In this document: piece by piece, positions 2,245 to 57,650 of the stretch | Numbering within the stretch: the first letter of the stretch is position 1 | How the letters are laid out: each line of letters starts with the position of its first letter | Assembly (NCBI GenBank): GCA_964635125.1 | Contig: CAZWMQ010000001.1 | Coordinates: 150,386-209,271 of the forward strand | Source: an uncultured Candidatus Saccharibacteria bacterium | Lineage (GTDB): Bacteria > Patescibacteriota > Minisyncoccia > Phycocordibacterales > UBA5272 | Direction: 5' to 3' | Length of the DNA: 58,886 bases | Made by a program: the position numbers and the translations under genes | Notes under the pieces: model-generated | The model's input: the letters and a program-made list of their open reading frames with translations, nothing else | Told to the model about the DNA's origin: nothing | Database searches by the model: none

Positions 2245-4680
2245 ATGCAGATGAATAAAAATAAGATTCTTAGATTAGTATTGTATGTCTGTTTAGCTGT
2301 AATACCATTTTTAGCTTTTTATGTTTCTGGATTTGGTATCGGAGCTAATTGGAATGCTATGTTTTTTCCATATATTACAGGTAAGAATTTTGCTTTTAGG
2401 ATTTTTGTAGAGATTGCTTTGGCTTGCTGGTTAATGTTAATGGTAGTTGATAAAAGTTTTCGGCCAAAGAAAAGTTTATTATTAACATTATATTCAATTT
2501 TTGTTTTTGTTTTATTGTTAGCTGATATTTTCTCTGTAAATCCAGTCAGATCTTTCTTTTCTAATTTTGAAAGAATGGAAGGGTTTATCGCCCATATTCA
2601 CCTGTATGCTTATTTTTTAATTCTAATAACCTTGTTCAAGGATAAAGCTTCTTGGGTTAAGTATAAGACTATACTTTTTATTTCTAATATTCCCGTAATT
2701 CTTTTAGCTTTATTACAATTATTAGGATTATCTGTTTTTTGGCCAATGAAATTTTTACCAGCACTTCGCGATGCTATTCATAAGTATTTTGCTCCAACTC
2801 AAGGGGGGAATCAATTGGATTCTAGTCTAGGAAATTCAACTTATTTAGCAATTTATACTATATTTTTCATTTTCTTATTATTAATTACTTATTTAGAAAA
2901 TCGCAAGAAAGAAAATGTTAAAAATTGACCTTATATTGTAATGTTAATTCTCAACTTAATTGTATTATTTTATACACAAACTAGAGGAGCTCAAGTTGGT
3001 TTTGCAATCGGAATATTTGCTACTTCAATTATAATTTATTTTGGAGGCAGAAAATTTAAAGAACTTAAAAATAAAAGGAAAATTTCTTTAGCTATTATCG
3101 TATTTGTTCTAATTAGCTATTTTAGTCTGATTATTTTCTCACATACTAATGTGGTTGCAAAATCTTCTACTTTGAACAGATTATCAAAAGTGGCTAGTTT
3201 TGCTGATCCAATATCTTTGCCTAAAAAAATATCTAAACTAACTTCTGAATTATATAATCCAAATTCTACTTATCAAGACCTTTTAGCTGTATCCGGAGAT
3301 GGAACTTTTACTTCTCGTATATTGAATATAAAAATGTCTTTAGATGGGTTTAAAGCTAGGCCAATTTTAGGGTGGGGTCAAGACAATTATTTTTATGTAT
3401 TTTCTAAATATAATGACCCAAGAATGTATGCTCAAGAGCCGTGATTCGATAGATCTCATAATGTGTTTATGGATTGGTTAATTGCGGCTGGAATTGTAGG
3501 GTTATTAGCCTATTTATCTTTATATGTAGGATCATTTTATATTATGTGGCATAAGAGATTTAAAAAAGATAATTACGACAATAGAGAATTTACGGAAAAG
3601 GCCTTACTTTCTGGATTATTAATTGCTTATTTTGTTCATAATATATTTGTCTTTGATAATATTATTTCTTATATATTGTTCTTTATAGTTTTAGCTTATA
3701 TTAGTGTTAGATTCAGTAAAGAAAAAACTCCAAAAGATCTTAAAGATTTAACTAATGAGCAAATAAAAAATAGGAAAATATTATACGGGCCAGTTATTTT
3801 GGTAGGATTAGTTTTATCTTTGTATTTCTTCAATGTTAAATATATGAAAGCAAATAAAGACATTATTAAAGGGTTGGTCCCAAATATGCAAAATCCGAGC
3901 GGACCATTAGCGGCTTTGAATGATAGTTTGGATGCTTTTAAGAGAGCAATTGCTATTGGGGGTATTGCTAAGATGGAAAGTAAAGAACAATTAGCCCAGA
4001 GTACTTTAAATTTAATTAATCAAGTTAAATCGGCTAATATATCCCTAACTGAAGAAAATAAGCCTGTGTATGATTTAATAAATAATTATATTAATACCAC
4101 TGAACAAGCTTATTCAGATGTGTTAAGTCAAAGAGTAATCCCAAGAAGTGTGGCAATTTATGCTTCCTTCTTACTAGGGATAGGGGATAGCAAAGATGCT
4201 TTGGCTTATGGTCAATTAGCACACGACTCATCACCCCATAAGCAATCAATTACTTTGACTTATATTCAATCTTTATTGGCGAATAGTAACTATACTAAAG
4301 CTGAAGAGATAGCCCAACAAATGTATAATGATGATGAGAGCTATGATGAAGCTAAGTCTATTTTAGCTTTGACCGAAGTTTATAATAAAGAATTTGATAA
4401 AGCCGAAAATCTTTTGACTAATAAAGACGGATCAGTTTCAATTGATCAAGATATAATGCAGGTGTATTTAAATTATAGTGAAGCTAATAGATTAGCTAAT
4501 ATTTTGAAGAAAAACATATCTATAAATAATCAAGACTCTAATTCAACTTTATTATTAGCGAACGTTTATTTAGTTTTAGGACAAAAGGCTAAGTCCATTC
4601 AGACTTTAGAAGATCTTAAAAAATTATTACCAGAGAAAAGCTCATTAATTGATGATTATATTAAAAAGATTCAAGCTTAA
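2245..4680 (+). CDS. O-antigen ligase (Wzy_C) family polytopic membrane protein with C-terminal TPR-like region, 811 aa
   Basis: Three track ORFs in one frame, joined through TGA at 2926-28 and 3442-44; motifs LGNSTYLA, TQTRGA, PILGWGQDNY, QEP(W)FDRSHN. Confidence 0.85.
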
Positions 4681-4727
4681 ATTTTTTTAATAGTATCATT
4701 TTAAAAACTTTATTTTTAAATTTTATA

Positions 4728-5930
4728 TTATAAATCTTCTAGATTATAATTACTATTAGCTTTTATATTTTCAATTTCTACTGGTTTTTGTTTATTTAAT
4801 ATTTTAAGTATCCCAGCAACTCCAATCATAAAGGCATTATCACCAGTTAAGAATTTTTCAGGAATAAATAATTCTAAATTCTCTTGTTTAGCTAGAAATT
4901 GAAAACTTCTTCTTAAGAAAGTGTTAGCGATAACCCCCCCACCAATTAGAAGACTTCTGGAATTGGTTTCTTTAATTGCTTTTTTTATTTTTTTTATAAG
5001 TATTTCATCTACAGCACTTTCAAAATCTAAGGCAATAATTTTTTGGATTTCAGTTTCATTTATATTTTCTTCTTTTAACTTTTGTATTTTATGAATTACA
5101 GCTGTTTTTAAGCCAGAAAAAGAAAAATTAAGATTATCAGAATGGAGCATTGGCCGAGGAAGTTGATCAGATTTTTCGATAATTCTATCCACTTGTCTTT
5201 CCGCTTCAGCAATTTTAGAGATTTCTGGTCCACCTGGATAGGGGAGGTTAAGACTTCTAGCAACTTTATCAAAGGCTTCACCAACTGCATCATCTATAGT
5301 TTTCCCAATTTTTCTATATTTATTTAATTCTTGAAAGGATATTATTTCGGTATGTCCTCCAGAAATTAATAAAGCAAGTGCTGGGGAAGAGAAGATTTTT
5401 AATTTGTAATCATTATTTTCTAATGGCTCAACTAGACTACTAACAATATGACCTTCCATATGATTGATTGGGTAAATTGGTATATCTCAGAGAATGCTTA
5501 TTGCTTTAGCAAAATTAATTCCGACTCAAAGAGCTGGAGCAAGCCCTGGTCCCATGGTTACAGCAATAGCTTCTAAATCCGGTTTTTCAATTTTTTCAAG
5601 ATTATGAATTAATTCTTCAAACATTTCCAGTTCTCTTTCTAATAAAATTTTAACTTTATTAACTTTTTCTTTTTCAAAGTTATTTTCTGTTTCTTTATAC
5701 AAATTAGTTTCTTTTAAACATTCTATAAAGATTTTTACAATATTTTTAGCATGCTCTCGTTTAGCTAACATTGGAAATACTCCTCCAAACTCACGATGAA
5801 TATTAATCTGAGATAAGACATGATTTGTTAATACTTTAAACTTTATATTTTTAATATCTTGTTGAGATGAAAAATCAAAAATAGTTAAAGCAGTCTCATC
5901 ACAGCTAGTCTCAATAGATAGTAATTTCAT
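4728..5930 (-). CDS. tsaD: tRNA N6-threonylcarbamoyltransferase TsaD
   Basis: IETSCDET, GPGLAPAL(W)VG, NHMEGH, SGGHT, DDAVGEAFDK, GDNAFMI; TGA at 5526-28 and 5487-89 read as Trp. Confidence 0.95.
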
Positions 5931-5988
5931 ATTTTCTTGATTATACTCTTAATCAAAGGTTTTGAAAAGTTTTTGTTATAATTAAAAT

Positions 5989-6462
5989 ATGAGATTAGAA
6001 ATTATAAGTGTTGGTAAGAAACACGATAAAAATTTAGAAAATTACCTTTTAGAATTTGAGAAAAGGATTAAAATAGAATTTGATTTAATTTGGACAGTAA
6101 TTTCAAGTGTTGATGATAAAAGTAAAGAGGTTCAAATTAAAAAAGAATTTGAAAAGATAATTAATATTCTAGAGAAAGAGAAGGGGGATAATTTTATTAT
6201 TTTACTTGATGAAAACGGGAAGCAAAAAACCACGATAGAGTTAAGTGAATTATTTATGGAGAAAATGAATCAAGGAGTTGAGAATATTATTTTTATAATT
6301 GGTGGAGCTTATGGAGTTAGTGAGGAAGTAAAGAGCAGAGCTAATTTTATTTGATCACTTTCAAAATTAATTTTCCCTCATCAATTAGTTAGAGTTATTT
6401 TAGTAGAGCAGATTTATAGAGTAATTTCTATAATTAAAGGTGGCAAGTATCATCACGAGTAA
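5989..6462 (+). CDS. rlmH: 23S rRNA pseudouridine-1915 methyltransferase RlmH
   Basis: [15 protein letters not shown], then (W)[22 protein letters not shown]...KYHHE after TGA 6352-54; TAA at 6460-62. Confidence 0.95.
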
Positions 6463-10285: not shown

Positions 10286-11671
10286 ATGAAAGAACTTTTT
10301 AAAAAAATAATACTTAAAATCTTAACTTGGGAAGCTAGAGTTATAATTAAAAGGTCTAAGCCGACTATTATTGCTGTAACTGGCAATTTAGGTAAGACTT
10401 CGACTAAGGATTTTATTTATGCAGCTTTAGCTAAGAATTTAAAAACTGAATTAGGAGAAGAATTAGTTTTAGCTTCGAAAAAAAGCATGAATAGTGAATT
10501 CGGGGTTCCGCTCACAATTCTCGAAATGCAAACTGCCTGGAATAATCCAATTGAGTGGTTAAAGATTATTTTCCGTGGATTTATTAAGGTTTTAGATAGA
10601 TATCATTATAAATATCTTGTTCTAGAAATTGGAGCCGATGCTCCAGATGATATTAAGAAGATTACGGAATATATTAAGCCAGATATTGCAGTTTTAACGG
10701 CTTTCGCGGAAGTCCCAGTACATATTGAATTTTTTAATAATGATAGGAATAGATTAATTAGAGAAAAGAAATATTTATTTGAAGCCTTGAAAGATGGTGG
10801 GACTTTTATTTATAACTATGATGATAAAGATTGTCAGAATATCGTAAATGATTTTAAAGATAAAAATATAATTTTGAAATCTTTCTCCCTTAAAAACCCT
10901 AAAGCCAATATTTATTTAAAAAATCATGAAGTAAATATTAAAGTTGAGAATAGATTTATTAATAAATTAATTGGAACAAAAGGTGAGGTAGCTATAGAAA
11001 ATGAAACTTATCCAATTATTTTGGATCAAGTCTTAGGTGAAGCGATATATTACAATCTAATGCCAGCACTATTAGTAGCCCAATCTTTAAAGGTTGATAT
11101 TAGTAAAGCTATTAGAGATATTGAAAGCTCTAAACGGACTAAAGGTCGTATGCATATTTTAGAAGGAATTTATAAAACTAATCTTATTGATGATACTTAT
11201 AATGCCTCACCAAAAGCACTTGAGAATGGTATTTCTTTAATTAAGAATTTAAAGATTAAAGGTAAGAAAATATTTATTTTAGGAGATATGTTAGAGTTGG
11301 GGGATTATACGAGATCTGAACATGAAAGGATTGGTGAATTAGTTGTTGGAGTGGCTGACATTTTAATTACTTCTGGAATAAGAGCTAAGATTATAGGGGA
11401 ATCAGCGATTAAAAATGGTATGAATGGAGAAAATGTTTATATAACTGATAACAGTATTGAAGCGGGCAAAGAAACTTTAAGAATAATCGAGCGAAAGATT
11501 GAAGAAGATTATAAAGAAGGTAAAAGTGAAAGTGAAGTCGGAGGAGATTTAATATTTGTGAAAGGTTCTCAAGGAGCTAGAATGGAGAAAGTGGTTAAAA
11601 TGATCTTAGCTAAGAATCATCAACCGGAAGATCACCTAGTTAGACAAGAGAAAGATTGAGAGAATAGGTAA
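10286..11671 (+). CDS. murF: UDP-MurNAc-tripeptide--D-Ala-D-Ala ligase MurF
   Basis: AVTGNLGKTSTK, DDTYNASP, LGDMLELG, VKGSQG; TGA 11657-59 read through (EKD(W)ENR) to TAA 11669-71. Confidence 0.9.
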
Positions 11672-11730: not shown

Positions 11731-12138
11731 ATGGAAGATAAAATATATAAAGTCAATAAAACTACAAAATTAGGTTTAATACTTTTAATGATACAATTTG
11801 TTTTAGGTTCAGTTGTTGGATTATGACATAAAGCTCCAAGCGAAGGTCCATCCCCAGCTTTGGCTAATTTAGCTTTTAATCTACATATAGCTGTAGCCAT
11901 CTTATTATTAATTGTAAGCATTATCTTAGTCGTTAGAGCTAGTAAGGTTAATAACCAGAAAGCCAAATCTTTTGCTTTAAGGGGATTGATTAGTGTAATT
12001 TTAGCAATAATAGGAGCAAGTTTTATATTCTGGTTTCAGCAAGGAGCGGTTTGAGGATTATTTATAATGGCAATTGGATTTCTTGGAGCAGTCGCGAATT
12101 ATGTAAAGGAATATATTGTAATTAATAGGATGAGATAG
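11731..12138 (+). CDS. Four-TM hypothetical membrane protein, 135 aa
   Basis: ATG 11731, TGA at 11824-26 and 12052-54 read through, TAG 12136-38; four hydrophobic helices. Confidence 0.7.
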
Positions 12139-13749: not shown

Positions 13750-13751
13750 AA

Positions 13752-14216: not shown

Positions 14217-14221
14217 GTTAT

Positions 14222-20246: not shown

Positions 20247-21227
20247 ATGAACTTTAATGTTGTGGAGAGTGTGGTACATATCCCATTAATCTGGTGGTTC
20301 GGGACATTAGTCTGATTTATAATTTTACTTTCTGTAGATTTATTTTTCCATCAAAAAGAAAAAGATGTGAGTATTAAAAGTTCAATTATTAATACTTTAA
20401 TCTGGCTTGGGCTGGCTTCATTATTAGGATTAGTGATCTGACTGAGATTTGGCTCTGGAGCTGGGGTGAAATTCTTCTCAGGGTATTTGATTGAACAAAC
20501 TCTAAGTATTGATAATATATTTGTTTGAGGATTAATACTTTCTTACTTTGCTATACCAAGGAAATTACATTATAAGGCCTTGTTCTATGGAATATTTGGA
20601 GCGATAATTTTTAGAACTATCTTTGTCTTTGTCGGTTTAGAGTTAATTGATAATTTTCAAATTACTTTATTAGTATTAGGATTATTAGTAATAGTTAGCG
20701 GGATAAGATTATTAATAAACAATAAAAAAAGAAAGTTCAACCCAGGTCAATCTAAATTAATAAGATTTATTGATTGAGTTTTACCGGTTAGTAAAAGATT
20801 GGAAGGAGATAAATTAATTATTAAAGAAAGAGGAAAATACTATATGAGTCTTTTATTTTTTGTAATAGTTGTGATTGAGATTATTGACATATTATTTGCT
20901 ATGGATAGTGTCCCAGCGGTAATTGCTATAGTTCGTGATCCATATATAGTTTTAGCTTCAAATATTTCAGCCATCTTGGGGCTAAGAAGTTTATATTTTA
21001 TCTTTGAAGCTTTGAAAAATAAATTCTGACTATTACATAAAGGAGTATCTATTATATTACTAGGAATAGGAATAAAGCTATTAATTGAACCAAGCCATAT
21101 TTTTAATTTAAATTGACTTAATATTAATATTTCAACTAATATTACTTTAATCTTTATTTTAATAATTATTTCAGCCTCGGTTATCGGTTCATTGTATTTT
21201 AAGAAGGGAACTAGTATAAAAGTATAA
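20247..21227 (+). CDS. TerC/Alx family membrane protein, 326 aa
   Basis: GYLIEQTLSIDNIFV, DILFAMDSVPAV, LGLRSLYF; six in-frame TGA; TAA 21225-27. Confidence 0.9.
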
Positions 21228-21251: not shown

Positions 21252-21740
21252 ATGATTAAAAGTATTTATTTAGCTGGGGGATGTTTTTGAGGAGTGGAAG
21301 AATTATTTAAGAAGTTAAACGGAGTTATAAATACTGAAGTTGGTTATACCGGCGGAGAAATTGATAATCCAACTTATGATAATCACGAGGGGCATGCGGA
21401 AGCTATTAAAATAGATTATGACGAAGAAGTTATTAGTTATATACAGATATTGGATTATTTTTTTAGAATTCATGATCCGAGCACTTTAGATAGGCAAGGG
21501 AACGATATTGGTGATAGCTATCGTTCAGCTATATTTTATCAAGATGAGAAGGAGAAGGATGAGGCTTTAAAAGTCATTGATAAAGTAAATCAATCCGGAC
21601 TTTATGAAAATAAAGTTGTAACTAAACTTGAAAAATTTAAAAGATTTTGAAGAGCCGAAGAATATCATCAAGATTATTTAAAGAAGAATCCTAATGGCTA
21701 TACTTGTCACTATTTAAGATCTGATGAGTCTATATTATAA
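21252..21740 (+). CDS. msrA: Peptide methionine-S-sulfoxide reductase MsrA
   Basis: AGGCF(W)GVE with TGA 21288-90; GHAEA; RQGND; F(W)RAEEYHQDY with TGA 21648-50. Confidence 0.97.
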
Positions 21741-25200: not shown

Positions 25201-26656
25201 TGTTTCCTCCAATCTCAACACCAAAAGCAGAATCATCTGCATAAATTCCTTCCCCAGTGCCTTCTGTCTCATCAGTACCGTAAGGAGCGCCGGGACTATT
25301 GAGGATTATATTATTTAAAATTTTAGAACCTGTATAATCTCCGCGTCCAAAATAAACTTCTCCGCAATCATCTTTAACCATACAAGCATAATTTATAAAA
25401 TTATTTTTTACTAAAACATTTTTATCATTGAATTGTATAGCAATATAGCCAGTGTTGGTTATGGTGTTATTGGACACATTGGAGTTTAATCCGGGACCTA
25501 TGATGGCATTATAATTTCCATCTCCAGATTTCCCCATCCCAGCCACCATTCCTGTATCGGATATATTATTATTGGTAATTATTGAAGATTCTGCTCCATC
25601 GAAACCCAGATTGATGGCATCATTGTTAGTATAATTTATATTATTATTAGATATGGTGAAATATTTTTCTCCTCCACGGTCAAGTTTAAGAGCATCTTTC
25701 CCGGAGTAAGATATATCTGAATTGTTTAATTGAATATTGGTATGATTGTATCCATTAGAATAGATGGCATTACTATTTGCTCCGCTTATAGTTAATCCAT
25801 TTATATTTATATAAGAAGTATTATCTTGATTTATAGAGATTAGATTATCCACCGTCGAAGCTTGGACTTGATATGAACTTGGATTGTTGGAACCAAAATA
25901 CACAGAGAGCTTTTTAGAGTTAGTATCATATGCCCAATCTCCCAAGGTAGAAAGAGCATTTATGCTGTTTTGGAAGAAGAATCCAAAACCAGGATTAGGA
26001 GGGTAAGCGCTATTCCAATAAGGGTCTTCCCCGGGTAAGGATGTAAAAGATATAGTTGAAGAATTTTGTGATGTTACAATTCCTCGATTTAATATCCAGT
26101 GAGCACCTCTATATACAACTTGTCCTCCAATAAAGTTAGGAGCACTTGATAAACCGGAAGAAGTAATACTAGTGCCACCTTGTGAATCAACAGTTAAATA
26201 CCCTCCATTACCAGCGGTCACCTTTGGCCATCTACCAATTGCTTGAAAGTTTCCATTTAAGGTAATCATATTCACCATATTGGAAGTAAAAGAAGGGTCG
26301 GTAGCTTGATATATTCCATTACCTATACTAGCCCAACCAGTAATAGTTTTGAACCCAGTGATTAGCGGCTTAGCCCCACTACCATAAGAAGAATAAGTAA
26401 TTGGGTTACCACTTGAGCCAGATCTGCTAATGTTTAAAGTTCCATACCAAGTATCTCCAGATTTAAACAAGATATTATCTCCCGGTTGAAAACTAAAGTT
26501 ACTAACTTTACTTAAAGTTTGCCAAGGAGTGGATTGAGAAGTTCCATTATTGCTATCATTACCGGAAGAAGAAACATAGTAAGTGGCTGCTTTTACTGAA
26601 GAGATTGATAAAATTAAAGAAATTATCAGTAAAGGTATTATATTTTTGATTTTCAT
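22256..26656 (-). CDS. 1466-aa secreted surface protein: parallel beta-helix, beta/gamma-crystallin-like domain, four PKD-like repeats, three SH3b domains
   Basis: Signal peptide; TYYVSSSGNDSNNG..PWQTL; VYKDCDYGG..DNDISSL; NAGVDKTITLP..YAWSKVSG repeats; LNVRS..GW..YISSDY; TGA at 23984-86, 22988-90, 22676-78 read through; TAA 22256-58. Confidence 0.85.
23280..24363 (-). repeat. Three near-identical about 250-bp PKD-coding direct repeats (23280-23530, 23556-23806, 24114-24363)
   Basis: Direct reading; I found only one substitution (copy 3) within the aligned blocks. Confidence 0.9.
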
Positions 26657-26710: not shown

Positions 26711-27229
26711 TTATTTTTTGTAGAATCTGATTTTTAATAATTCGTCTTTCAATCTATATGCTCTAAATATTTTGAGATGAATTAAAATATAGAAAATAAT
26801 TATAGCTACAATTATTCCACCCATTACATCGTAAATATCATGAACTTTTAAATATAATCTATCTATAATAATTAATATAAACCAGACTGTTGAAATAATT
26901 TTGAAAATATTGGTGAGTATTTTATTTTTTAAGAAATTAGCTAAATAAAATATTAGCAAGAATGTAGTCATAGCTATAGCCACATGTCCAGAGGGGAAAG
27001 CATAACTAGTTTCATGAATAAGAGCCAAAGGGTTTCTAGGTCTCTCAATTAAATATTTTAAGAGGACAACTATAAATATAGTAAATATGTAATTACTTAA
27101 GATTAAGCCAATTAATAATTTATCTTTTTTAATAAAGAAAAGTATTAAAGAAACCATAGTAATAAAAATGAGGATTACTTTCTCTCCACCAATAATAGAT
27201 ATTAAGTTGAAAAAAGAAAATCAATTCAT
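26711..27229 (-). CDS. PAP2-family membrane phosphatase
   Basis: KYLIERPR, AFPSGH, DRLYLKVHDIYDVMGG; start extended to ATG 27229 through TGA at codon 3. Confidence 0.85.
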
Positions 27230-36943: not shown

Positions 36944-39121
36944 TTAATTTTTTACCCAATTTGTAACTAATAGTAAATCTTCGCTAACATTTTTAATATC
37001 TTTTCAGATCTCTTCAGTAAGAAAAGGCATAAATGGATGTAAAGTTATAATTAGATTTTTCAAAGTTATATATAAAGTAGCTTGAGCGGAAACTTTATCT
37101 TTATTATCATTAATTCTTACTTTTAAAGTTTCTAAATATTTATCACAGAATTCATGTCAGAAAAAAGCATAGATTCTCTCGCTAGCTAAATGTAGGCGAT
37201 AATTCTCAATATCTTCGGTTATTTCTTTAATTGTATTTAGAGTTTGATTATAGATATTTTTATCCTCTCCATTAATAATATTCTTAATATGATCTTGTTT
37301 TTTATCATAGTTTTCAGTTTTTTCTAAAACTAATCTGGTGGCATTTCAAACTTTATTAGCGAAATTTTTATAAGCTTTAACTTTATCTTCTGACAATCTT
37401 AGATCATTTCCTGGACCATTGCCAACTATTAAAGACATTCTTAAAGCATCAGTTCCATATTTGATAATTAATTCTCTAGGATCTAGAGCATTACCTAAAG
37501 ATTTACTCATTTTTCTGCCTTGATTATCACGAACCAGTCCATGTAAATAAGTTGCTTTGAAAGGAATTTGATTTAAGGCATATTTACTCATCATAATCAT
37601 TCGAGCTACTCAGAAAAATAAAATGTCATGTCCAGTTTCTAATAAATTAGTTGGATGATATTTTTTGAGATCAGGAGTTTTCTCAGGCCAACCCAAGGTG
37701 GAGAAAGTCCACATACCGCTTGAGAATCAAGTATCAAGTGTATCTTCGTCTTGAATTAAACTATCATCATCATTAAAGCCAACTGCTTTAATTTTTTTAT
37801 TTTGATCATATCAAACCGGAATACGATGACCATATCAGATCTGTCTTGAGATACATCAATCTTTTAAATTATTTACCCAATGGAAATATATTTTAGAAAA
37901 TCTCTCTGGAATAATTTCTAAATTATCTTTCTCAACGGCTTCTAGCATTAACTTTTTTAATGTGGTTCTATTTCCAAAGTGATTAAATTCTTTATTCACA
38001 GCGACAAATCATTGTAATTTCGGAAGTGGTTCAATAATTCCACCGGTTCGCTCAGCGGTGGAAACATTTTGAGTAATTTCTTTTTCCTCAATTAAGAGAT
38101 TATTTTCTTTTAACTTTTCAATGATAATCTCTCTGGCTTCTAGGACTTTTTTACCATCGAGCTCAGTATTAGTATTAATTATTTTGGCAAATTCATTAAT
38201 CACTTGTTTAGATTCTAAATTATGTCTCTCACCAATCTCCTCATCAATCTTAGAGTGAGCAGGAGTAACTCCGAGAGCTCCAGTTCCAAATTCCATATCT
38301 ACTTCTTTATCAGCGATAATTTTAATCTCTAAATTAACTCCACAGAAATTCACTTGAAAAGTTTTTCCGATATATTCTTGATATCGAGTATCATCTCCAT
38401 TAACTGCAACTGCAGTATCACCAAGCTTAGTCTCTGGTCTAGTCGTTGAGATAGCAATCGGAAAGTCTTTATCATATTTAAAAGTATAAAGCATAGCTTT
38501 CCTTTCCTCATAAACAACTTCATCATCAGAAATAACCGTCTGTCCTTTAGGATCTCAATTAATTACTCGATAACCTTGATAGATTAATCCATCTTCATAC
38601 ATTTTCTTAAACATAATATTCACCGCCTCATTTCTTTTTGAGTCTAAAGTGAAAGAAAGGCGAGATCAATCAAGTGTAGCTCCCATCGATTCAAATTGGG
38701 AGAGAATTGTCTCTTGCGAATTTAAAGCAAAATCATTAACTCTTTTTAAAAATTCTTCTCGACCCAGGTCATGTCTTTTAAGATTTTCTTTTTTAAATAA
38801 TTCTTTCTCTACTACCAATTGAGTAGCAATAGCCGCATGGTCAGTTCCGGGAAGTCAGAGAGTGCGATAATGATTCATACGATAATATCTAATAATAGTA
38901 TCTTGGATAGCAAGCATTAAGGCATGTCCAGTGTGAAGTGTCCCAGTAACATTTGGTGGCGGTAAGATCATTGAGAAAATTTTCTCATTATCATCCTTAT
39001 CAAGAGTAACATTTTTTAAATTATCTGGATTGAAATAACCTGAGTCTCGTCAAGCTTTATAATTAGGATTCTCAAACTCTTCTGGATTATAGGCTTTTAA
39101 ATATTTTTCAGGTAACGACAT
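36944..39121 (-). CDS. valS: Valyl-tRNA synthetase (short form lacking C-terminal coiled coil), 725 aa
   Basis: [14 protein letters not shown](W)LPGTDHA, D(W)CISRQI(W)YGHRIPV(W)Y, DT(W)FSS, KMSKS; about 13 in-frame TGA; TAA 36944-46. Confidence 0.95.
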
Positions 39122-40531: not shown

Positions 40532-41200
40532 ATGAAATCAACTATAAAAATAAGTATAATCGTTGTTGTAATTATAATAATCTTGTCTTTTTTCTTTGAT
40601 AGGAGTCCAAATCTAGGTGGAATGGATAATTCTTTTTCTTATACAAATAATAATTCTAATAAAGATAAGGGGGAAATTAATAATAAAAATAATCAATCTA
40701 AAAATATGTTAAATGATAAACAAAATTATTCTTTAGTAACTTTACACACTAATCTTGGAGATATTACTTTTGAATTAGCTAAAGACAAGCCTAAAACTAC
40801 AGAAAATTTTATTAAATTAGCAGGCGAGGGATTTTATAGCGGGATTAAATTTCATCGGGTGATTAAAGGATTTATGATACAAACGGGTGACCCACTTTCT
40901 AAAGATGATAGTTTGAAACCTCGCTGAGGAACAGGAGGACCAGGTTATCAATTTGAAGATGAATTAACCGGTAGTGAAAAATATACAATCGGAACTGTAG
41001 CTATGGCAAATGCTGGACCAAATACCAATGGCTCTCAATTCTTCATTATGACTAGTAATACTCCATTACCACCATCTTATACAGTTTTTGGTAAAGTAAT
41101 CACTGGGCAAGACATAGCTAATCAGATCTCAGAAGTTGAAACCGATTCTTTGGATCGCCCAGTAAAAGATATAGTTATAAATTCAGTTGATTTAAAGTAA
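40532..41200 (+). CDS. Membrane-anchored cyclophilin-type peptidyl-prolyl isomerase
   Basis: [21 protein letters not shown], (W)[26 protein letters not shown]; TGA 40925-27. Confidence 0.93.
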
Positions 41201-41219: not shown

Positions 41220-42113
41220 TTATTTTAAATAACCCTTTTTAAAATCTGTAAAACTCATTTCTTTTTTGCCTTCTGGAATAACTTTTAAAATAATTTCATC
41301 AGCCAATTTATTTTTAGCCCAGTCTTTATTTAAGTTAACTTGGCTAACTTTTACTCTGATCAATTTCTGATTATTTTTATTATGAATAAAGAAAAAGATT
41401 GGAATATGAGGCGGTAAAGCTTTAAATTTATTTTGGATTTCTTGCGACGGGTCATTTAAAGAGATTTCCCCGTCGTCTTTTTGAAATTTATAAGTAAAGG
41501 TTGCTTTACTATGATCTTGTTCAATTGGAATTAATTTATGGTTAAGGTAATTATTAATATTATCAATTATTAATTTTGCTCCTCGCTCTCCAGCCAAGCT
41601 TTCTAAGTCTAAATTAGTTTCCATTTCTTGAATTGAAAATATTTTCTGAATTAAGATTGGGCCATGATCCATTTCTTTATCTATTTTCATTATACTGATT
41701 CCTAGTTTGTCATCTCCATTAATTAAAGCAGTTTGAATCGGAGAAGGTCCTCGATAAAGTGGTAATAATGAAGGGTGAATATTAATAACTCCATCTCTAA
41801 ATAAATTTAAAAACCCTTCTTTTAAAATTTTTGGATAAGAAGCAACAATTGCTAAGTCAAATTTTTCTTTTAACGGAGTATCTTGAAAGTTAATATCTTT
41901 TAATGTTTCTGGTTGTCAATAAGAAATATTATTATCTTTAGCAATTTTAACTATCTGATTTTCGATTTCTTTTAAGCCTCGTCCAGAAGATTTGTTCGAA
42001 GTAGTAATAATTAAGCTCGGCTTTCAATTGTTATTTAAGAAGGTTTGTAAGGAAGATATAGCTAATGGTCCAGACCCTAAAAACACCCATTTAATATCTT
42101 TATAGTTTTTCAT
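41220..42113 (-). CDS. fmt: Methionyl-tRNA formyltransferase
   Basis: INIHPSLLPLYRGPSPIQ, MDHGPI; TGA 42024-26 and 41916-18. Confidence 0.93.
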
Positions 42114-42748: not shown

Positions 42749-44710
42749 CTATTTTATATTTAGACTTAATGATAATGAATATAATTTTCTAGTAAGTGAT
42801 GTTGGAGTTATTTTTTTATCTTTTTTATTTTGATAGAGATTTTTAGGAATAGTTAAAGAGATTTCATATAAATTATTTTTCTTGTCGATTTTCCAGATCG
42901 GTTCAGTATTTAATTTTTCTTCAGATACGATTCTTTTTAGTATCTTTTCAAAATTATTTTTAAGTTTTTCGTTTTTAGCTTCAATTTTTCAATTTAAAGT
43001 AATCGTAAATGGAGGAAGGTTTAATTGTTTTCTTAATTTTAATTCATCTTCTAGAAATTTAACTTTTTGATTATTTAAAATATATTTTCATATCGACTGC
43101 TTCATTAATCTAGTTTGAATAATTATTTCATTCTTAGACCTAGTCTTTTCGTTTAATTCTAAAATTAAATTAAAGATTTTACTATCTATATCTATTTCGG
43201 GAATAGCAAACAATGAATCAAGTGAAATTATAGAAACTAAGTCAGTTCTATAATCAGTATTTAAGAAATTTAAAGCTAGCTCTGTACCAATTAAGATGCT
43301 TGCCTCTTTCTCATTTTGTCAATCCTGAATTGTTTTTAAGATCTCCTTCTTGGTTTTCTCTTGATCGCTATCTAAAATAAAAGTCTTAAAACCAATCTCT
43401 TTTAAATTCTTAGCCACGGCTTCACTCCCAATACCGAGAGTTTTCATTCTCCAACTATTACAATTTTGGCAAATTAGATTTTTATTTTTGTCTAAATTTA
43501 GAATTTCTTTACAATTTTGACATTGATAAATTTTATCTCCAGCTTTATTCTTCACTAGAAGATAGGGTTTATCACATTTTGGACAAGTAAATATATTCTG
43601 ACAATCTTCACAAATAGTTACTGGATAAAGTCCTTTTCTTTTTACAAATAGAAACCCTTTACCACTATTCTTTTTAAGATTTTCTAATTTATCAATTAAT
43701 TCTTCACTAAAATATACTTTATTATATGAATTAGTTTTTTGATTATTTTTTAAAATTTTAAGATTATTTTTAATTTCTTTTTCCTCAATATCATCTTTAT
43801 TTTGACTGATTAATTTAAGATTTAATTTCTGATTATTATTTCTAACTTCCACTTTATTTTCTTTAGCTTCTAGATAAGTATTCATAGTTAAAAGTCGACC
43901 ACTAATCAATAAATTAAGATTTAAGTCTAACGAGACTTTTTTAATAACCTCTCGAAAATCAATCGGTTTAGAAATTAAATTATTTAAGTAATGTGGAGAG
44001 ATCTCATTATCTAAGACTATAGTTTCTAAGTTAATTTTGTCTTTAATTAGAATTGGAAAAAGAGAGGGAGTTGAGATAATTAAGAATAGGTTTTTAGAAT
44101 TAAGTTTTTTCAAGTTTTCTTTTAAATTTTTATTGCTTAATTTAGAGTGAAAGCTGAGTATATTTTTATTAGATATATTTCTCTTAAAATAATTTTCCAA
44201 AGTCTCAACCTCTAAGATAGTTGGAGTAAATATAACTATTGAATTATTTTTTTTAAACTCTTTTTGAGTTAATTTTAGATATTCATTTTGTCGATTAGTT
44301 AGATCTTCTAAGAGATAATTGGTTGTATTTCTATTTCTTTTCGACTTCAAAGTATCTTTATTGTTTAAGATTTTTGAATTATCATAAATAAAGTTTGGAA
44401 AATAATTACTTAAAATATCATTAATTTTGACAGATTGAAGTATGGCGATATCTTTTAGACTTTGAAAGAAGATTTCATCAATAAAATTCTCTTGAATAAC
44501 TTTTTCTATTTTTTTTAGAGTGAATTTTTTAGTCTTAATGTTTAGTTTTTGAGATTTAGCCAGAGATATATTATTAACTAGGCCAAGAATTTTACGATTT
44601 TTAATCTTTATTTCTACCAAACTACCGAGATTTAATAGTTGATTATGAAAATAAGTATAAGATTCATCTGGAAAACCTTTAGCGATTGGAATAATATCTA
44701 AAATATACAT
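42749..44710 (-). CDS. priA: Primosomal protein N' (PriA)-like, degenerate helicase motifs, 653 aa
   Basis: GSLVEIKIKNR 3'-binding domain, four CxxC motifs, LGIGSE, LIGTE, SLDSLF.IP; TGA 43319-21, 43088-90, 42989-91; TAG 42749-51. Confidence 0.8.
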
Positions 44711-47233: not shown

Positions 47234-48397
47234 ATGACGATTATTATTTTTATTATTATACTTTTACTCTTAGTGATTATTCATGAAGGAGGGCATTTTT
47301 TTGCGGCGAAAGCCTCTAAGGTTCGGGTGGATGAATTTGCTTTTGGATTTCCCCCAAGAATCTGGTCTAAGAAAAAGGGCGAAACTATTTATGCGATTAA
47401 TGCTTTACCATTAGGTGGTTATGTAAAAATTTACGGTGAGAATGGAGAAAGTGTCGAAGGAGATAAGAGAAGTTTTGTAAACAAACATCCTTTAAAGCAA
47501 ATTTTTATTTTAATTGCCGGAGTTTTGATGAATTTAATTTTAGCTTATTTTTTGATTACACTTTCTACTTATTTGAATACTAATATTCCAGTAAATCGTG
47601 ACGATCCAGAATATCAGAAGTTAATGAATGAAGGTAGAATTAAATCTGAACAAGCGATGATTATTGAGATTGTAAAAGGTTCCCCAGCTTCTCTTTCTCC
47701 ATTAAAAGTCGGTGATAAGCTTATTAAGATCACAGCCAATCAAGAGAGTTTGGCTGGTAAGATTATAAATTCTAAAGAGATCGATTTATCTGAAACCGAT
47801 GAAGAAATTGTCAAAGACATTTCAAACTATATTAATGGTAATTCGGTTTATAGTGATTCGATAACTTTTACTTTCAAAGACAATCATAATAATATTTCTT
47901 CAACGACAATCGCTGGAGTTTATAATTTAGAAGGATTAGAGGAGAAGAAAATGATAGGAGTAGCTTTAACTAAAGTGGCTCAAGCCAAATTAAGTTTAAT
48001 TGATACCATTAAGTATGGATTTGAAAAAACCACTGAATATATAAAATTAACCATACTTGGTTTTCGGGATTTAATTATCAACTTAATTAAGACGGGGAAA
48101 ATCAATCAAGAGATTGCTGGTCCAGTTGGTATTGTTTCGGCAGTCGGGCAAGCTAGAGGATTAGGGTTTGATTATTTATTAACTTTTACAGCTATTTTAT
48201 CAATTTCATTAGCTATATTTAATATTTTACCAATACCAGCTCTTGACGGAGGAAGAATATTATTTGTTTTGATAGAGTGAATTACTCGAAAGAAAATTTC
48301 TCAGAAATGGCAAAATATACTAAATGCCGCAGGGTTTATATTATTAATCTTATTAATGATTTTAGTGACAATTAAAGATGTAATTAAATTGTTTTAA
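47234..48397 (+). CDS. RseP-like site-2 protease (M50)
   Basis: IHEGGHF, FGFPP, LPLGGYV, GPVGI, NILPIPALDGG; TGA 48278-80 read through to TAA 48395-97. Confidence 0.92.
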
Positions 48398-48426: not shown

Positions 48427-49680
48427 ATGCAACAATCTAAACTTTTCACTAAAACTCAAAAAGAAATCCCAGCTGACGAAACAGCAAAAAATGCCAAACT
48501 TTTAATTCAGGCCGGATTTGCCTATAAAGAAATGGCTGGAGTTTATACTTTATTACCACTAGGCTTAAGAGTTCTTAAAAAGATTGAAAATATTATTCGT
48601 GATGAAATGAATCAAGTTGGTGGAATCGAAATGCAAACTTCAGTATTACAAAGTAAAGAAGTTTGGGAAAAAACTAATCGTTGGAGTGATGAAGTGGTTG
48701 ATAATTGATTTAAAACTAAACTTAAAAATGATACTGAGCTTGGTTTATCATTTACTAATGAAGAAGCTTATACTAGTCTATTGAAACAATATATTTCTTC
48801 TTATAAAGATTTACCAATTTATACGTATGATTTTAAGAGTATATTTAGAAATGAAGTCAGAAGTAAATCTGGACTTATGCGAGGACGAGAGTTTTATTGG
48901 AAAGCACTTTATTCTTTTTCTAAAAACAAAGTTGAGCATGATGAATTCTATGAGAAAATAAAAAATGTTTATCAGAGAATATTTAATAGAGTTGGAATTG
49001 GAGAGAATACATATTTAACTTTTGCTTCTGGTGGAACATTTTCAAAATACTCTCATGAATTTCAAACCATATCGGAAGCTGGTGAGGATATTATTTACTT
49101 AGATAAAAGGAAAAATTTAGCAATTAATCAAGAAGTTTATAATGATGAAGTTTTAAAAGAGCTAGGAATTAATAAGAGTGATGTAACAGAAGAGAAAGCC
49201 ATTGAAGTCGGTAATATATTTTCACTCGGAGAAAAGTTTTCAAAACCATTAAACTTAAATTATAAAACCGAAACTGGAGAAACTGAGCTTGTATATATGG
49301 GGAGTTATGGGATTGGTTTAACTCGATTGATGGGGACGGCGGTTGAAGTGTTATCCGATGAGAAAGGGATAGTTTGGCCAGAAAGTATTTCTCCATTTCA
49401 AATTCACTTACTAACTTTATTTAATAATCAAGACGATGAAAGTTATAAATTATCAAGTGAGATTTATAATAAGTTATTAGTCAAGGGAGTAGAAGTTTTA
49501 TGGGATGATAGAGAAGGAAAAAGTGCTGGGGAAAAGTTTAACGATGCTGATTTAATAGGTATAACAATTAGAGTAATTATTTCGGCTAAATCTTTAGAAA
49601 ATGGCGGAGTGGAAATTAAAAATAGAAATGAAAAAGAATCTAAAGTTATATCAATAGGAGAATTTTTAGAGAAATTTTAG
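48427..49680 (+). CDS. proS: Prolyl-tRNA synthetase (short form)
   Basis: LPLGLRV, FRNE.R..SGLMRGREF, GSYGIG; TGA 48706-08. Confidence 0.93.
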
Positions 49681-50809: not shown

Positions 50810-50834
50810 TCTTAATTTGTTATAATCTATTGTA

Positions 50835-51743: not shown

Positions 51744-51746
51744 TTT

Positions 51747-51926: not shown

Positions 51927-51932
51927 TAAAAT

Positions 51933-53681
51933 ATGATAATAAAAAATATTCTTAAAAAGATTTTTAAAAAAAGAAAAAGAAGCGGAGAAATAAATCCAGA
52001 AGATATCTTTTTAGACTCGACTAATTTAATTGGTTTAGATAATGATAGAGAAGAAGCTTTTTTCAACAGACCAATTTCAATTTTTATGGGATATTTACCA
52101 GCGAGTTTTTTATTAATAGTTTTATTTGTTTTTAGTTATAGATTATATATCTTAAGTATTAAGAATTTCGATTTTTATAAAGATAAAGCTAACAATAATC
52201 GTTATAATGCTAATATAATTTTGGCTAATCGAGGTGAAATTTTTGATCGTAATGGACAAATTTTAGCTGAGAATATAGTATCTTCTACTACTAATATTTT
52301 AAAAAGAGAATATATTAAAGACGGGGGGTTTTCTAATATTTTAGGGTATATTAATTATCCTAAAAAAGATGATTCAGGAAATTATTGGCAAAATAATTAT
52401 ATTGGTAAGGATGGAGTAGAACTTATTTATAATGACCTATTATCAGGTATTAATGGGCAACAAATTATTGAAAAAGATGTTAAATCTGCAGTAGAGTCAG
52501 AAAATCTTTTAGTTAAACCAATTCCCGGAGCTAATTTAAATTTAACTATAGATGCTGAATTACAAAAAAGATTATTTAACTCTACTAAAGCCGTAGTTAA
52601 TAATAGGAATTTTATATCTGGAACAGGAATTATTATGAATATTAAAAACGGAGAGATTCTAGCCATGGTTAATTATCCAGAATATGATAATAATTTGATG
52701 ACCAATAGTAATAGTCAAGAAGATAATCAAAAAATTAAAAACCTTCTACAAGACAAAAGGAATCCTTTTCTAAATAGAGCCGTATCAGGATTATTTACTC
52801 CTGGATCAGTAGTTAAACCATTTATGGCTTATGCTGCTTTAAATGAGAAAGTAATTACTCCAGAGAAACAAATTTATTCATCAGGTCAATTAGTTATAAA
52901 AAATATATATGGAGGTCCAGACACTGTATTTCGTGATTGGAAAGCTCATGGTTATATTAATGTAGTTAGAGCTTTAGCGGAGTCGTCGGATGAATATTTT
53001 TATCAAGTAGGAGGTGGCTATAAAGATCAACCCGGTTTAGGGATTGATAGGATTGATAAATATGCTAAACTTTTTGGTTTGACAGACGAGACAAAGATTG
53101 ACTTACCGAATGAAGAAACAGGAATAATACCAACTCCAGAATGAAAAAGAATTAATTTTTTAGATGGAGATTGATTATTAGGAGATACTTATCACACTTC
53201 AATTGGACAATATGGTTTCCAGGTTACTCCAATTGAATTGATACGATATATTGCTGCCATTGGTAATGGTGGATATTTAGTAACTCCACATATTTTTCTT
53301 TCAGCTACTTCAACCGAGGATTCTTCTTTGATAGACCAGTTAAATTCTAAGACTTGGCCTATAATTGATTTAGGTTTAGATAAATCACTTTTACAATATG
53401 TCGAAGAGGGTATGAAAGAAGTAGTTTTACCTAATGGGACTGTGCCACAATTAAATATTAAAGGATTAAATATGGCAGTTAAGTCTGGAACAGCTGAACT
53501 AGGTATAGTTAAGGGTAAAGTCAATTCTTTAATTACAGGTTATTTTCCTTTTGATAATCCAAAATATGTCTTTACGGTTATAGTTGAAAATGGTCCAGTT
53601 GGAGCACCTTCTCCAGCGGCACAGGTAATTCAGCCAGTTTTAGAATATATAGCTTCTCATAAAGATGATTATTTACCATAG
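51933..53681 (+). CDS. mrdA: Penicillin-binding protein 2
   Basis: PGSVVKP (SxxK), ESSDEYFY, KSGTAE; TGA 53142-44 and 53172-74; synteny with mreBC. Confidence 0.9.
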
Positions 53682-53752: not shown

Positions 53753-54229
53753 ATGATAAAAGAAGTTAAAGGATACATAACTAAGGAAAAAAAACAGGAA
53801 CTAGAAACAGAATTAAAATATTTAGAGTCAGTTCGTAGAAAGGAAATCGCTGATGCCATTGAATGAGCAAAGTCACTTGGAGACTTATCTGAAAATGCTG
53901 AATATGCTCAAGCTCGTGAAGATCAAGGACATGTTGAAGCTCGTATTAGTGAGATTGAGAATATTATACAAAATGCTATAATTTCTGGAGAAAATTTAAA
54001 ATCTGACGATCATGTTCGAGTTGGTTCAGTGGTGACAGTTAAAAATACTGAGGAGAATTTCGAACAGACTTATACTATTGTTGGCTCAGAAGAGATTAAT
54101 ATTGAAGAAGGAAAGATCTCTAACGAATCTCCGCTTGGTAATGCTTTATTAGGTCATGTTGAAGGTGATAAAATAACTTTCCGTAGCCCAAAAGGTGAAA
54201 ATACTTATAAAATCTTAAAAGTGAATTAA
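53753..54229 (+). CDS. greA: Transcription elongation factor GreA
   Basis: AIE(W)AKSLGDLSENAEY, ISNESPLGNALLG; ATG 53753, TGA 53864-66. Confidence 0.96.
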
Positions 54230-54250: not shown

Positions 54251-55711
54251 ATGTCATCTTTAGCTGAAATTAAAGAAGAAAGATTAAAGAAATTACAAAG
54301 ATTAATTTCTGATGGAATTGATCCATATCCAGCCCATTCGGAGAGGTCCTCTAATATTAAAGATTATCTTAATGATTTTGAAAATATTAATGAAGCTATT
54401 TTAACTGGAAGAATTATTTCCTCACGAGGTCAGGGGAATTTAATTTTCTTTGATATTTTTGATGGTTCGGGAATCTCAAAAGATGAAAGCAAAGTTCAAG
54501 CCATAATTAAGAATCCCGAGTCAGATCAGAAAGTTTTTGATTATTATAATAATTATTTAGATATTGGTGATATTGTCGAGGTGAAAGGTGAGAAATTATT
54601 ATCTAAAACTGGACAGAAAAGCATATTAGTCAAAGAAATTAAAATATTGTCTAAAGCCTTACTACCATTGCCGGACAAATATCATGGCTTACAAGATGAA
54701 GAATTGAAGATACGATATAGATATTTAGATATTTTAACTAATGAAGAGCTTAGAGAATTATTTTTTAAGAAAGCTAAGTTCTGGAAAGTAGTTAGGGAAT
54801 ATTTAAATGATAAAGGAATGTTAGAAGTTGAAACTCCAACTTTAGAAGTGACGACTGGTGGAGCCGAAGCTAGACCTTTCAAGACTCATCATAATGATTT
54901 TGATATGGAAATGTATTTACGAATCTCAGTTGGAGAATTGTGACAGAAGAGATTAATGGCGGCAGGGTACAACGGCACTTATGAGATTGGGCGAGCTTAT
55001 CGTAATGAAGGGTCATCTCCTGAGCATCTTCAAGAATTTACGAATTGTGAATTTTATATGCCATATAAGGATTATAAAGATGGGATGAAAGTAGTCAAAG
55101 ATTTATATATTAAATTAGCCAGAGATGTCTTTGGGAAAACTGAGTTCACTAATAAAGGATTTACTTTTGATTTAGATGGTGATTGAGTTGAGATTGATTA
55201 TGCAAGCGAGATTAAGAAACAAACTGGGATTGATATTTGAGAATCTAATAATGATGATATTAAAAATAAATTAACTGAGTTAAAGGTAAAATACGATGGT
55301 AATAATCGCGAGAGATTGCTTGATACACTTTGGAAATATTGTAGGAAAAGTATTGCTGGACCAGCTTTTCTAATTAATCCACCCTTAATTGTGGCACCAC
55401 TGGCTAAACCCAATCCAGATGGTAAAACGGCTCAGATGTTTCAACCGATCTTAGCTGGATCTGAAATTGGGCGAGGATATAGTGAATTAAATAATCCGAT
55501 CATCCAGAAAGACAACTTTACCAAGCAACAAGAGTTATTAGCCGGAGGGGACGAAGAAGCCATGATGAGCGATGATGACTTTATTGAGATGCTTGAGCAT
55601 GCTATGCCACCAACTTGTGGATTCGGATTTGGGGATAGATTATTTGCCTTTTTAGCTGGATTACCACTAAGAGAAACTATAATGTTCCCGCTAATTAAAG
55701 AGAAAAAATAA
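54251..55711 (+). CDS. lysS: Lysyl-tRNA synthetase (class II)
   Basis: GGAEARPFKTHHN, LRISVGEL(W)QKRL, YRNEG, PPTCGFGFGDR; TGA 54941-43, 55184-86, 55238-40. Confidence 0.96.
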
Positions 55712-56265: not shown

Positions 56266-56287
56266 AGATATCTGACCGGTATTATTT

Positions 56288-56722
56288 ATGCTTATTGGAC
56301 ACTATCAACATAATTTAGATGATAAAAAAAGAATTTCTATACCAAGTAAATGGAGAAGAGATCTTGGGAAGAAAGTCATTGTGACTAGTGGTCTTGATAA
56401 GTCGCTCTTTGTATTTTCATTAAAAGAATGGATTAAGATTAGTGATAGATTATCAGAATTATCAATTACTAATCCGGATTCTCGAAGCTTTGCTAGATTT
56501 ATGTTGGCGAATGCTTTTGAAGTTGATTTAGATTCCGTGGGAAGAATCTTAATTACAGATACATTGAAAACTTTCGCTAATATCAGTAAGAAAGTTATAT
56601 CAGTTGGTATGCATTCAAGAGTTGAGCTTTGGGCGGAGGAAGAATGGGAGAAATATTCTAAAAATAATAATCAACAAGCTGATCAAATAGCCAGTCGATT
56701 ATCCGAGCTTGGAATATTTTAA
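56288..56722 (+). CDS. mraZ: Division/cell-wall cluster repressor MraZ
   Basis: MLIGHYQHNLDDKKRISIP, DSVGRILI, GMHSRVELW. Confidence 0.96.
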   Translation: MLIGHYQHNLDDKKRISIPSKWRRDLGKKVIVTSGLDKSLFVFSLKEWIKISDRLSELSITNPDSRSFARFMLANAFEVDLDSVGRILITDTLKTFANISKKVISVGMHSRVELWAEEEWEKYSKNNNQQADQIASRLSELGIF

Positions 56723-56726
56723 AAAT

Positions 56727-57650
56727 ATGTCTAAACATATTCCAATCTTGCTCGCTGAAACTATTGCTAATTTAAATTTAGAATCTAACGATATAGTCGT
56801 CGATTGTACTACCAATCGTGGAGGACATGCTTTAGAAATAGCTAAAATAATTGGTCCGAGCGGGATTTTAATCTGTCTTGATCTTGATAATCAAGCTCTT
56901 AATGAAGCTAAGATTAATCTAGAAAAAAATATTTCTAAAGATAAATTGCCAAAGATTTATTTTATAAATGATAATTTTCGAAATATTATTAAGATATTAG
57001 AAAATTTAAAAATAAAAGAAATCGATGGACTATTAGCTGATCTTGGAGTATCGTCTCAAGAAATTGATATTTCGGGGCGAGGATTTACTTTTCGAAAAGA
57101 TGAGCCATTATTAATGACTTTAAAAGATAAGTTAAACAATGATGATTTAACTGCTGAGAAGATTCTTAATAATTGAGAAGAAGATAACATAGCCGATATA
57201 ATTTATTATTATGGAGATGAGAGATATGCTAAGCGAATTGCTAAGCATATAATTGACGCTCGTAAAGTTAAACCAATCAAGACAACATCTCAATTAGTAG
57301 AAATTATTAAAAGCTCTGTCCCAGTAAATTATCAAAAAGGGAAAATCCATTTCGCAACTCGTACTTTCCAAGCTTTAAGAATTGCGGTGAATGACGAATT
57401 AAGAAGCGAGGAAGAGCTGATTAGATCTTTACTAGATATATTAAAAAGTGAAAGTAGGGCCAGCTTTCTAACTTTCCACTCGGGTGAAGATAGAGTTTTA
57501 AAAAGAGTAGTTAAAGAATATAAAGATAAATTAAAGTTAGTAAAATTTTCAAATAAGAAGGATTTTCTCGAGCCAAGTAGAGAAGAAATTAAAAATAATC
57601 CAAGATCACGAAGTAGCAAACTTCGCCTCATCCAAAAATATAGTTCTTAA
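56727..57650 (+). CDS. rsmH: 16S rRNA m4C1402 methyltransferase RsmH
   Basis: HIPILL, DLGVSS, RGFTF, HFATRTFQALRIAVNDE, FHSGEDR, NPRSRSSKLR; TGA 57174-76. Confidence 0.96.

Follow-up and report, generated by a model that had tools for sequence, protein, structure and literature searches.

UGA very probably encodes tryptophan in a small, AT-rich genome of the Paceibacteria

In this work we have analyzed a 58,886-bp stretch of bacterial DNA with a GC content of 30.6% (the window, by which we mean the whole of this stretch), in which many genes are interrupted by in-frame TGA codons, and we conclude with high confidence that UGA has been reassigned from stop to tryptophan throughout the genome of origin (translation table 4). 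Judging from its closest protein matches and from gene order, this is predicted to be the small, AT-rich genome of a member of Paceibacteria (Parcubacteria; class Minisyncoccia), in agreement with a preliminary description of the window, made from its letters alone, which had taken it for a genome of Parcubacteria type within the candidate phyla radiation. The reassignment appears to have taken place recently and only within a subclade, and it belongs to a kind of recoding that was first described in 2026, so that the window is a member of this kind and not the first of it.

When TGA was treated as a sense codon, a first pass gave 54 closely packed open reading frames (ORFs) with 64 in-frame TGA. 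Four starts were then shifted to a probable ATG, those of a recombinase, a 204-aa protein, Def, and MraZ (g16, g17, g38, and g51), some of the first-pass TGA lying upstream of the likely starts of these genes, and a GC-rich ORF with two apparently in-frame TGA (12201-12482) was removed as a probable non-gene. After correction, 55 in-frame TGA were present in 23 of 53 genes, 17 of these on the plus strand and six on the minus strand, the first beginning at 2245 and the last finishing at 57650; the preliminary description had counted about 55 in about 23 genes on both strands. No gene is interrupted by TAA, by TAG, or by a frameshift, every one of the 55 interruptions being TGA. Furthermore, as had been noted before for the intact genes checked, the 52 complete genes all stop at TAA (42) or TAG (10) and none at TGA, a count that holds for the window and not for the whole genome. 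In the comparison of coding density that had been proposed as a check, ORFs of 100 aa or longer occupied 79.8% of the window when table 11 was applied and 91.2% when TGA was read through. Excluding the genes of a GC-rich island that is described below, TGA represents 55 of the 130 Trp codons of native genes (∼42%). Trp content is 0.89% if TGA is counted and 0.58% if it is not. A Logan contig assembled from a single run (SRR11845634) is 100% identical to positions 30415-38066 of the window (7,652 bp) and contains the same 13 TGA, and therefore these codons do not stem from the error of a single assembler. On this identical contig, the public gene calls are broken, with the DUF192 protein in pieces and valyl-tRNA synthetase (ValRS) reduced to an 84-aa fragment.

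The identity of the amino acid was addressed by comparison with close relatives, namely twelve contigs of a family recognized by LepA and SecA whose gene order is common with the window. These relatives cover 32 of the TGA sites, of which 28 are invariant Trp, two are Leu, one is Phe, one is variable (W/F/Y/V), and none is Gly, which bears out the earlier claim that UGA means Trp and not Gly. The codon found in the relatives at the 28 invariant sites is TGG, save for two TGA in the nearest relative. Several positions had been singled out in the preliminary description as conserved tryptophans, and all of them proved to be so. The sites at 29128 in the M3 peptidase and at 32347 in the DUF192 protein are TGG-Trp in every close relative. 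In ValRS, where 13 of the 17 Trp codons are TGA, all 13 sites are TGG-Trp in the three relatives with an intact gene; 12 of the 13 fall within the alignment to Thermus thermophilus ValRS (1gax), opposite ten W, two Y, and no G, and the TGA of the D-TGA-CISRQ motif aligns with a W of 1gax. Both TGA of MsrA, including the one in the GCF-W-G motif (21288), are W in the PDB structures 4gwb and 1nwa. The three TGA of lysyl-tRNA synthetase (LysRS) are in less conserved places, opposite H/Y, W/F, and Y/A in LysRS structures of the PDB, mostly aromatic and never Gly. Within a 1,466-aa repeat protein, each of three TGA lies opposite a TGG-Trp of sister repeats; one of them, at 23986-23984 on the minus strand, is the predicted PKD tryptophan at 23984 and has TGG-Trp opposite it in three sister repeats. 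Finally, a TGA located four codons ahead of the TAA stop of a Mur ligase gene is TGG-Trp in six relatives, and it is thus a sense codon and not a stop.

The best LepA and SecA matches of the window are all metagenome-assembled genomes (MAGs) of Paceibacteria/Parcubacteria, a placement made by best hit and not by a multi-marker tree. Protein searches with both sequences delimit a tight family of ∼25 sequence clusters, with identities of 67-80% for SecA (the next match being at 61%) and 80-89% for LepA (the next at 75%), and outside Patescibacteria (Bacteroidota and others) LepA identity falls to 45-50%. The GC of family members is 26-35%, some of them are single contigs of 0.61-0.63 Mb, and the contigs that we fetched have gene order in common with the window. 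Besides SRR27197500, runs SRR23961939, DRR379934, and DRR438450 contain relatives, and GCA_046350775.1 is one of the 0.6-Mb genomes. Membership of a known table-4 clade such as Mollicutes had been named as one case that would undo the proposal; no mollicute is found among the top LepA or SecA relatives, and a mollicute origin is ruled out by them. This close family was reached only through the protein database and not through a scan of GTDB species representatives, in which LepA, among the matches listed, had at most 66% identity and the loci contained no in-frame TGA. A scan of JGI metagenomes with ValRS gave a best match of 59% identity and no close relatives, and a search for ValRS fragments returned only short proteins, the fragments on long contigs ending in frameshifted tails and not at Trp sites. 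A comparison of ORF coverage over 80 loci was too blunt to tell the codes apart.

The nearest relative is represented by two contigs of run SRR27197500, L087 and L093 (89% identity in LepA and 80% in SecA). This organism has two in-frame TGA in ∼6,100 aligned codons, one in L087 (3248-5692) and one in L093 (6329-6973), each at a Trp site where the window likewise has TGA (residue 228 of the Wzy_C protein and residue 77 of the DUF192 protein), and its public gene calls split both genes at these codons. Over the same stretches, it has two TGA versus 38 TGG, and the window has 12 TGA versus 27 TGG. In most members of the family, the 1-4.5 kb of protein aligned from each is free of in-frame TGA. 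In five relatives without in-frame TGA, only five of 97 called genes (∼5%) stop at TGA, as do two of 78 direct homologues of window genes, and UGA was thus an infrequent stop in this AT-rich family before the recoding. Because the nearest relative shares two UGA sites with the window and has few others, the reassignment appears to be recent and limited to a subclade, and this relative seems to show the recoding at an early stage. These data would be explained if UGA had been reassigned once, recently, in an ancestor common to both organisms, and if UGG had then drifted to UGA, much further in the lineage of the window than in that of the SRR27197500 relative. The direction of change follows from the relatives without in-frame TGA, which have UGG at nearly all of these sites; once UGA was readable as Trp, A/T-biased drift turned UGG into UGA. 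According to what is known of table-4 bacteria and to the 2026 reports on Minisyncoccia, release factor 2 (RF2, encoded by prfB) would have been lost and release factor 1 (RF1) would terminate translation at UAA and UAG, and UGA would be read by a tRNA-Trp(UCA).

Some observations weigh against a genome-wide reading of UGA as Trp. Four of the covered TGA sites are not strict Trp in the relatives (two Leu, one Phe, and one variable), the codon at both Leu sites being TTA, one base away from TGA (also CTC at the RlmH site), and another group of sites has no homologue support: two in a small membrane protein, codon 3 of the PAP2 phosphatase, and codon 21 of the bPH_2 protein. There is no tRNA-Trp gene in the window, whose five tRNAs are Val, Glu, Ser, Phe, and Arg, and tRNA scans of the window and of 14 family loci found none. 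No release-factor match was obtained among the 36 window proteins compared with Pfam, a scan that left out a few small ORFs, and 59 kb cannot show the absence of prfB from a genome; the homologues of most of the remaining window proteins carry other Pfam families, and prfB did not turn up in the examined loci of relatives either. Moreover, the standard code of some relatives is deduced from 1-4 kb of aligned protein and a few TGA-terminated gene calls and not from whole genomes.

The young look of the recoding could also be expected if the reassignment were only partial and near-cognate or suppressor decoding inserted Trp in a cell that retains RF2 and in which some UGA still terminate. TGA accounts for 42% of native Trp codons in the window and for ∼5% in its nearest relative, and in other close relatives TGA apparently continues to serve as an infrequent stop, all of which would suit such an intermediate state. 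However, none of the 52 complete genes of the window stops at TGA, the only TGA close to the end of a gene corresponds to Trp in relatives, competition from termination would come at a heavy cost in the essential, single-copy ValRS with its 13 TGA, and the recoded Minisyncoccia reported so far have no prfB. We therefore consider a partial reassignment improbable.

The reading of UGA as Gly (table 25) is the classical recoding of the same phylum, in Gracilibacteria and Absconditabacteria, and coding density cannot separate table 4 from table 25, but there is scarcely any room left for it: relatives have Trp at 28 of the 32 covered sites and Gly at none, the PDB alignments place no TGA opposite Gly, in MsrA and ValRS conserved W positions are occupied by TGA codons, and the nearest relatives are Paceibacteria and not members of class JAEDAM01. 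We give as little credit to the idea that the TGA codons are real stops, either in pseudogenes of a decaying genome or through sequencing or assembly errors. Table 11 does break the genes into pieces, as this idea requires; however, the 55 interruptions are all TGA and at Trp positions, an independent assembly is identical, and the essential ValRS, LysRS, prolyl-tRNA synthetase (ProRS), TsaD, and PriA would all be dead. Selenocysteine insertion at TGA is ruled out by the pattern of sites.

With respect to previously known cases, the 2021 Codetta screen found no UGA-to-Trp case in the Patescibacteria phylum, and a review of the phylum from May 2026 mentions only UGA-to-Gly. An April 2026 paper in NAR (Nucleic Acids Research) described UGA-to-Trp in the family JAKLIH01 (order UBA6257, class Minisyncoccia, which is equal to Paceibacteria), in which RF2 is absent, UGA is never a stop, and a tRNA(UCA) was detected in two of the four genomes studied; a tRNA with a 4-bp stem was also expressed there in E. 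coli with a UGA-interrupted reporter (PMC13092985). The gTranslate preprint of May 2026 reported it in 12 genomes of JAKLIH01, in ten of the genus GCA-2747955, and in one further Minisyncoccia genome, three GCA-2747955 genomes still using code 11 (bioRxiv 10.64898/2026.05.24.727570). The preliminary description had called the event rare and independent of those of Mollicutes and insect endosymbionts; this holds, yet the kind had been published in 2026 and the event is not its first example.

The window shares with JAKLIH01 the class, the reassignment, and the 0% of UGA stops; UAA represents 82-88% of stops there and 81% in the window, and UGA stops are 4-10% in the sister groups of JAKLIH01 and ∼5% in the relatives of the window. 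Eight NCBI assemblies nearest to the window could be resolved (including GCA_964538815.1, GCA_964648875.1, GCA_046350775.1, GCA_018061825.1, GCA_039798205.1, and GCA_039809325.1), and none of them is among the 31 genomes formed by the four of JAKLIH01 and their 27 closest relatives (PMC13092985 Table S2). The names given to the relatives by their submitters (Nomurabacteria, Kaiserbacteria, and Zambryskibacteria) presumably lead to order UBA9983 and not to UBA6257. On this indirect evidence, the recoding of the window is probably separate from the JAKLIH01 event, and it is very unlikely that the window belongs to that family. Kaiserbacteraceae is within order UBA9983 according to the Vazella paper.

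The genus GCA-2747955 (family GCA-2747955) is also of order UBA9983; a dolphin mouth is the source of its type genome, other genomes come from a glass sponge and a vent shrimp, and they have ∼0.57-0.62 Mb and ∼28-32% GC. Published members of the family have 567 kb with 28.4% GC in one case and 624 kb in another (PMC7426153 Table S2; PMC8042907). This genus resembles the organism of the window in class, in the codon change, and in its small low-GC genome (30.6% GC in the window, 0.61-0.63 Mb in relatives), as well as in mixing recoded and standard-code genomes at short distance and in having recoded members known only outside INSDC assemblies. However, no resolved relative of the window is a listed member of the genus, and the likeness is circumstantial. 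A link through the glass sponge was rejected, as run SRR11845634 is not part of the Vazella study, which has GCA-2747955 MAGs but whose metagenome runs are SRR114556xx. On balance, we lean towards the window being either GCA-2747955 or the extra genome of the preprint. That it represents a further independent UGA-to-Trp reassignment in Minisyncoccia, apart from JAKLIH01 and GCA-2747955 and at an early stage, is a possibility that we put forward only tentatively.

Outside this class, UGA also means Trp in Mycoplasmatales and in the reduced symbionts of insects and protists (Hodgkinia, Zinderia, Nasuia, Stammera, and Fastidiosibacteraceae XS4), which likewise have small, AT-rich genomes and depend on a host, and for which the presumed route is the same, from rare UGA stops to the loss of RF2 and a UGA-reading tRNA-Trp. 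These organisms differ in belonging to unrelated phyla, and the transition in the window would be much younger than that of Mollicutes, as standard-code relatives are still very close (85-89% in LepA). Gracilibacteria and Absconditabacteria (class JAEDAM01, table 25) share phylum and codon with the window and differ in the amino acid, Gly versus Trp.

A stretch of ∼6 kb (12,183-18,318) differs from the rest of the window, having 35-58% GC versus a background of 27-31%. Its flanks are a small membrane-protein gene and tRNA-Glu(CTC), which are adjacent, without the island, in a relative (L089). It contains five genes for zinc-ribbon/TPR/trypsin-like membrane proteins and one for a large serine recombinase, all of which stop at TAA or TAG, and these genes have 26 TGG and no TGA, whereas the rest of the window has 75 TGG and 55 TGA (Fisher p = 6e-6). 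On its composition, the island reads as DNA recently acquired from a higher-GC donor using the standard code. A perfect inverted repeat of 168 nt (12183-12350 / 16387-16554) surrounds a 4-kb block of zinc-ribbon genes, and another of 118 nt (99%; 16548-16665 / 18135-18252) surrounds the recombinase gene and finishes 7 nt inside tRNA-Glu; they could be an invertible (phase-variable) segment, nested att sites, or an assembly artefact. Close to the left end, ∼700 bp with 53-58% GC (12200-12880) contain no convincing ORF and several hairpins (e.g., 12463-12485 / 12770-12792), and the matches from an Rfam search of 12.2-12.9 kb all stayed below threshold, at the level expected by chance (Hovlinc, 26.9 bits versus a gathering score of 42.3). 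A scan of IMG/VR viral contigs with the recombinase recovered no relative.

The 23 genes that contain TGA are given here in the order of the window, with the position of each TGA (the start of the codon on the minus strand). The first is a Wzy_C/O-antigen-ligase-like membrane protein with a TPR tail (2245..4680, plus strand; TGA 2926 and 3442), which matches Pfam Wzy_C and has Trp at both sites in four relatives, L087 having TGA at the first. TsaD follows (4728..5930, minus; 5528 and 5489), with homologues carrying Pfam TsaD and TGG-Trp at both sites in four relatives, and then an RlmH-type SPOUT methyltransferase (5989..6462, plus; 6352), with Pfam SPOUT_MTase in homologues and Leu (TTA or CTC) in relatives. 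The Mur ligase considered above is MurF-like (10286..11671, plus; 11657). Next to it, the small membrane protein (11731..12138, plus; 11824 and 12052) is an ORF with neither a Pfam match nor a covering relative, and its sites are the least certain. A TerC-family membrane protein (20247..21227, plus) has six TGA (20313, 20439, 20526, 20775, 21027, and 21114), and its Pfam TerC match, at residues 77-281, runs across three of them. MsrA (21252..21740, plus; 21288 and 21648) matches Pfam PMSR. The 1,466-aa protein, a predicted surface protein with Ig-like and SH3-like repeats (22256..26656, minus), has TGA at 23986, 22990, and 22678, and the PAP2 phosphatase (26711..27229, minus; Pfam PAP2) has one at 27223, which is codon 3 behind an uncertain start codon and is Phe in one relative.

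The M3 oligopeptidase (27289..29322, plus) has TGA at 27319, 27544, and 29128, of which sites 11 and 614 are TGG-Trp in four relatives and site 86 is the variable one (W/F/Y/V). The TypA/BipA GTPase (29455..31272, plus; 31141) has TGG-Trp in five relatives and Pfam BipA_C in its homologues. The bPH_2-domain membrane protein (31326..31898, plus; 31386) has its Pfam bPH_2 match downstream of the TGA and no covering relative, and the DUF192 protein (31924..32577, plus; 32152 and 32347) has Trp at both sites in five relatives, with TGA at the first in L093. The 13 TGA of ValRS (36944..39121, minus) start at 39052, 38857, 38668, 38557, 38011, 37858, 37837, 37813, 37729, 37612, 37348, 37159, and 37006. 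They are followed by a cyclophilin-type peptidyl-prolyl isomerase (40532..41200, plus; 40925), with TGG-Trp in three relatives and Pfam Pro_isomerase in homologues, by methionyl-tRNA formyltransferase (41220..42113, minus; 42026 and 41918), whose first site is Leu (TTA) and whose second is TGG-Trp in relatives, and by a PriA-like helicase (42749..44710, minus; 43321, 43090, and 42991), whose three sites are TGG-Trp in two relatives.

In the last part of the window, the Pfam Peptidase_M50 match of an RseP/M50 site-2 protease (47234..48397, plus; 48278) reaches the TGA, and the same frame goes on to TAA. ProRS (48427..49680, plus; 48706) has Pfam tRNA-synt_2b and HGTP_anticodon downstream of the TGA in the same frame. 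A PBP2-type transpeptidase (51933..53681, plus; 53142 and 53172) would have its Pfam Transpeptidase domain truncated if translation halted at TGA, the frame going on to TAG. In GreA (53753..54229, plus; 53864), the N- and C-terminal Pfam GreA domains are in one frame across the TGA, and in LysRS (54251..55711, plus; 54941, 55184, and 55238) the full-length alignment to PDB LysRS spans all three. Finally, the RsmH (MraW) methyltransferase (56709..57650, plus; 57174) has its Pfam Methyltransf_5 match (positions 143-308) after the TGA in the same frame.

Other features of the window and of its relatives were also observed. The 1,466-aa predicted surface protein consists of three near-identical 93-aa Ig-like repeats plus one diverged copy and three SH3-like repeats, with long Asn/Thr-rich linkers, and its identical repeats could collapse or expand in assembly. 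Two MreB paralogues, MreC, and the PBP2-type transpeptidase (44758-45810 and 49751-53681) are followed by MraZ, RsmH, and an FtsI-like gene at the end of the window, representing a full set for rod shape and division in a genome of ∼0.6 Mb. In a standard-code relative (Logan contig L094, run DRR379934), an Avd-like gene beside a reverse transcriptase gene (18176-19608; Pfam bAvd and RVT_1) is likely a diversity-generating retroelement, located between a SET-domain gene and the gene of a ribosome hibernation factor, and no such insert is present at the equivalent place of the window (39720-40158). In L089 (GCA_018061825.1), ARAGORN predicts a tRNA-Ser with the unusual anticodon ACT (16454-16650) directly after tRNA-Ser(GCT), of which the window has only the GCT copy (19758-19846).

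Stop-to-sense reassignments are few among free-standing bacterial lineages, and Patescibacteria is, to our knowledge, the only phylum with tables 4, 11, and 25. In the window, pipelines that apply table 11 break 23 of 53 genes, three aminoacyl-tRNA synthetases included, so that table 4 is needed if completeness, metabolism, and phylogeny are to be estimated correctly for such MAGs. The genes of the island, with 26 TGG and no TGA, offer a picture of horizontally acquired DNA in a recoded host, which bears on the role of code change as a barrier to mobile elements. Furthermore, recoded and apparently non-recoded genomes are found here at very short distance, providing material for testing codon capture against an ambiguous intermediate. 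If the window did represent a further independent event, the clade would be a natural series in which to order the depletion of UGA, the loss of RF2, the gain of the tRNA, and the spread of UGA codons.

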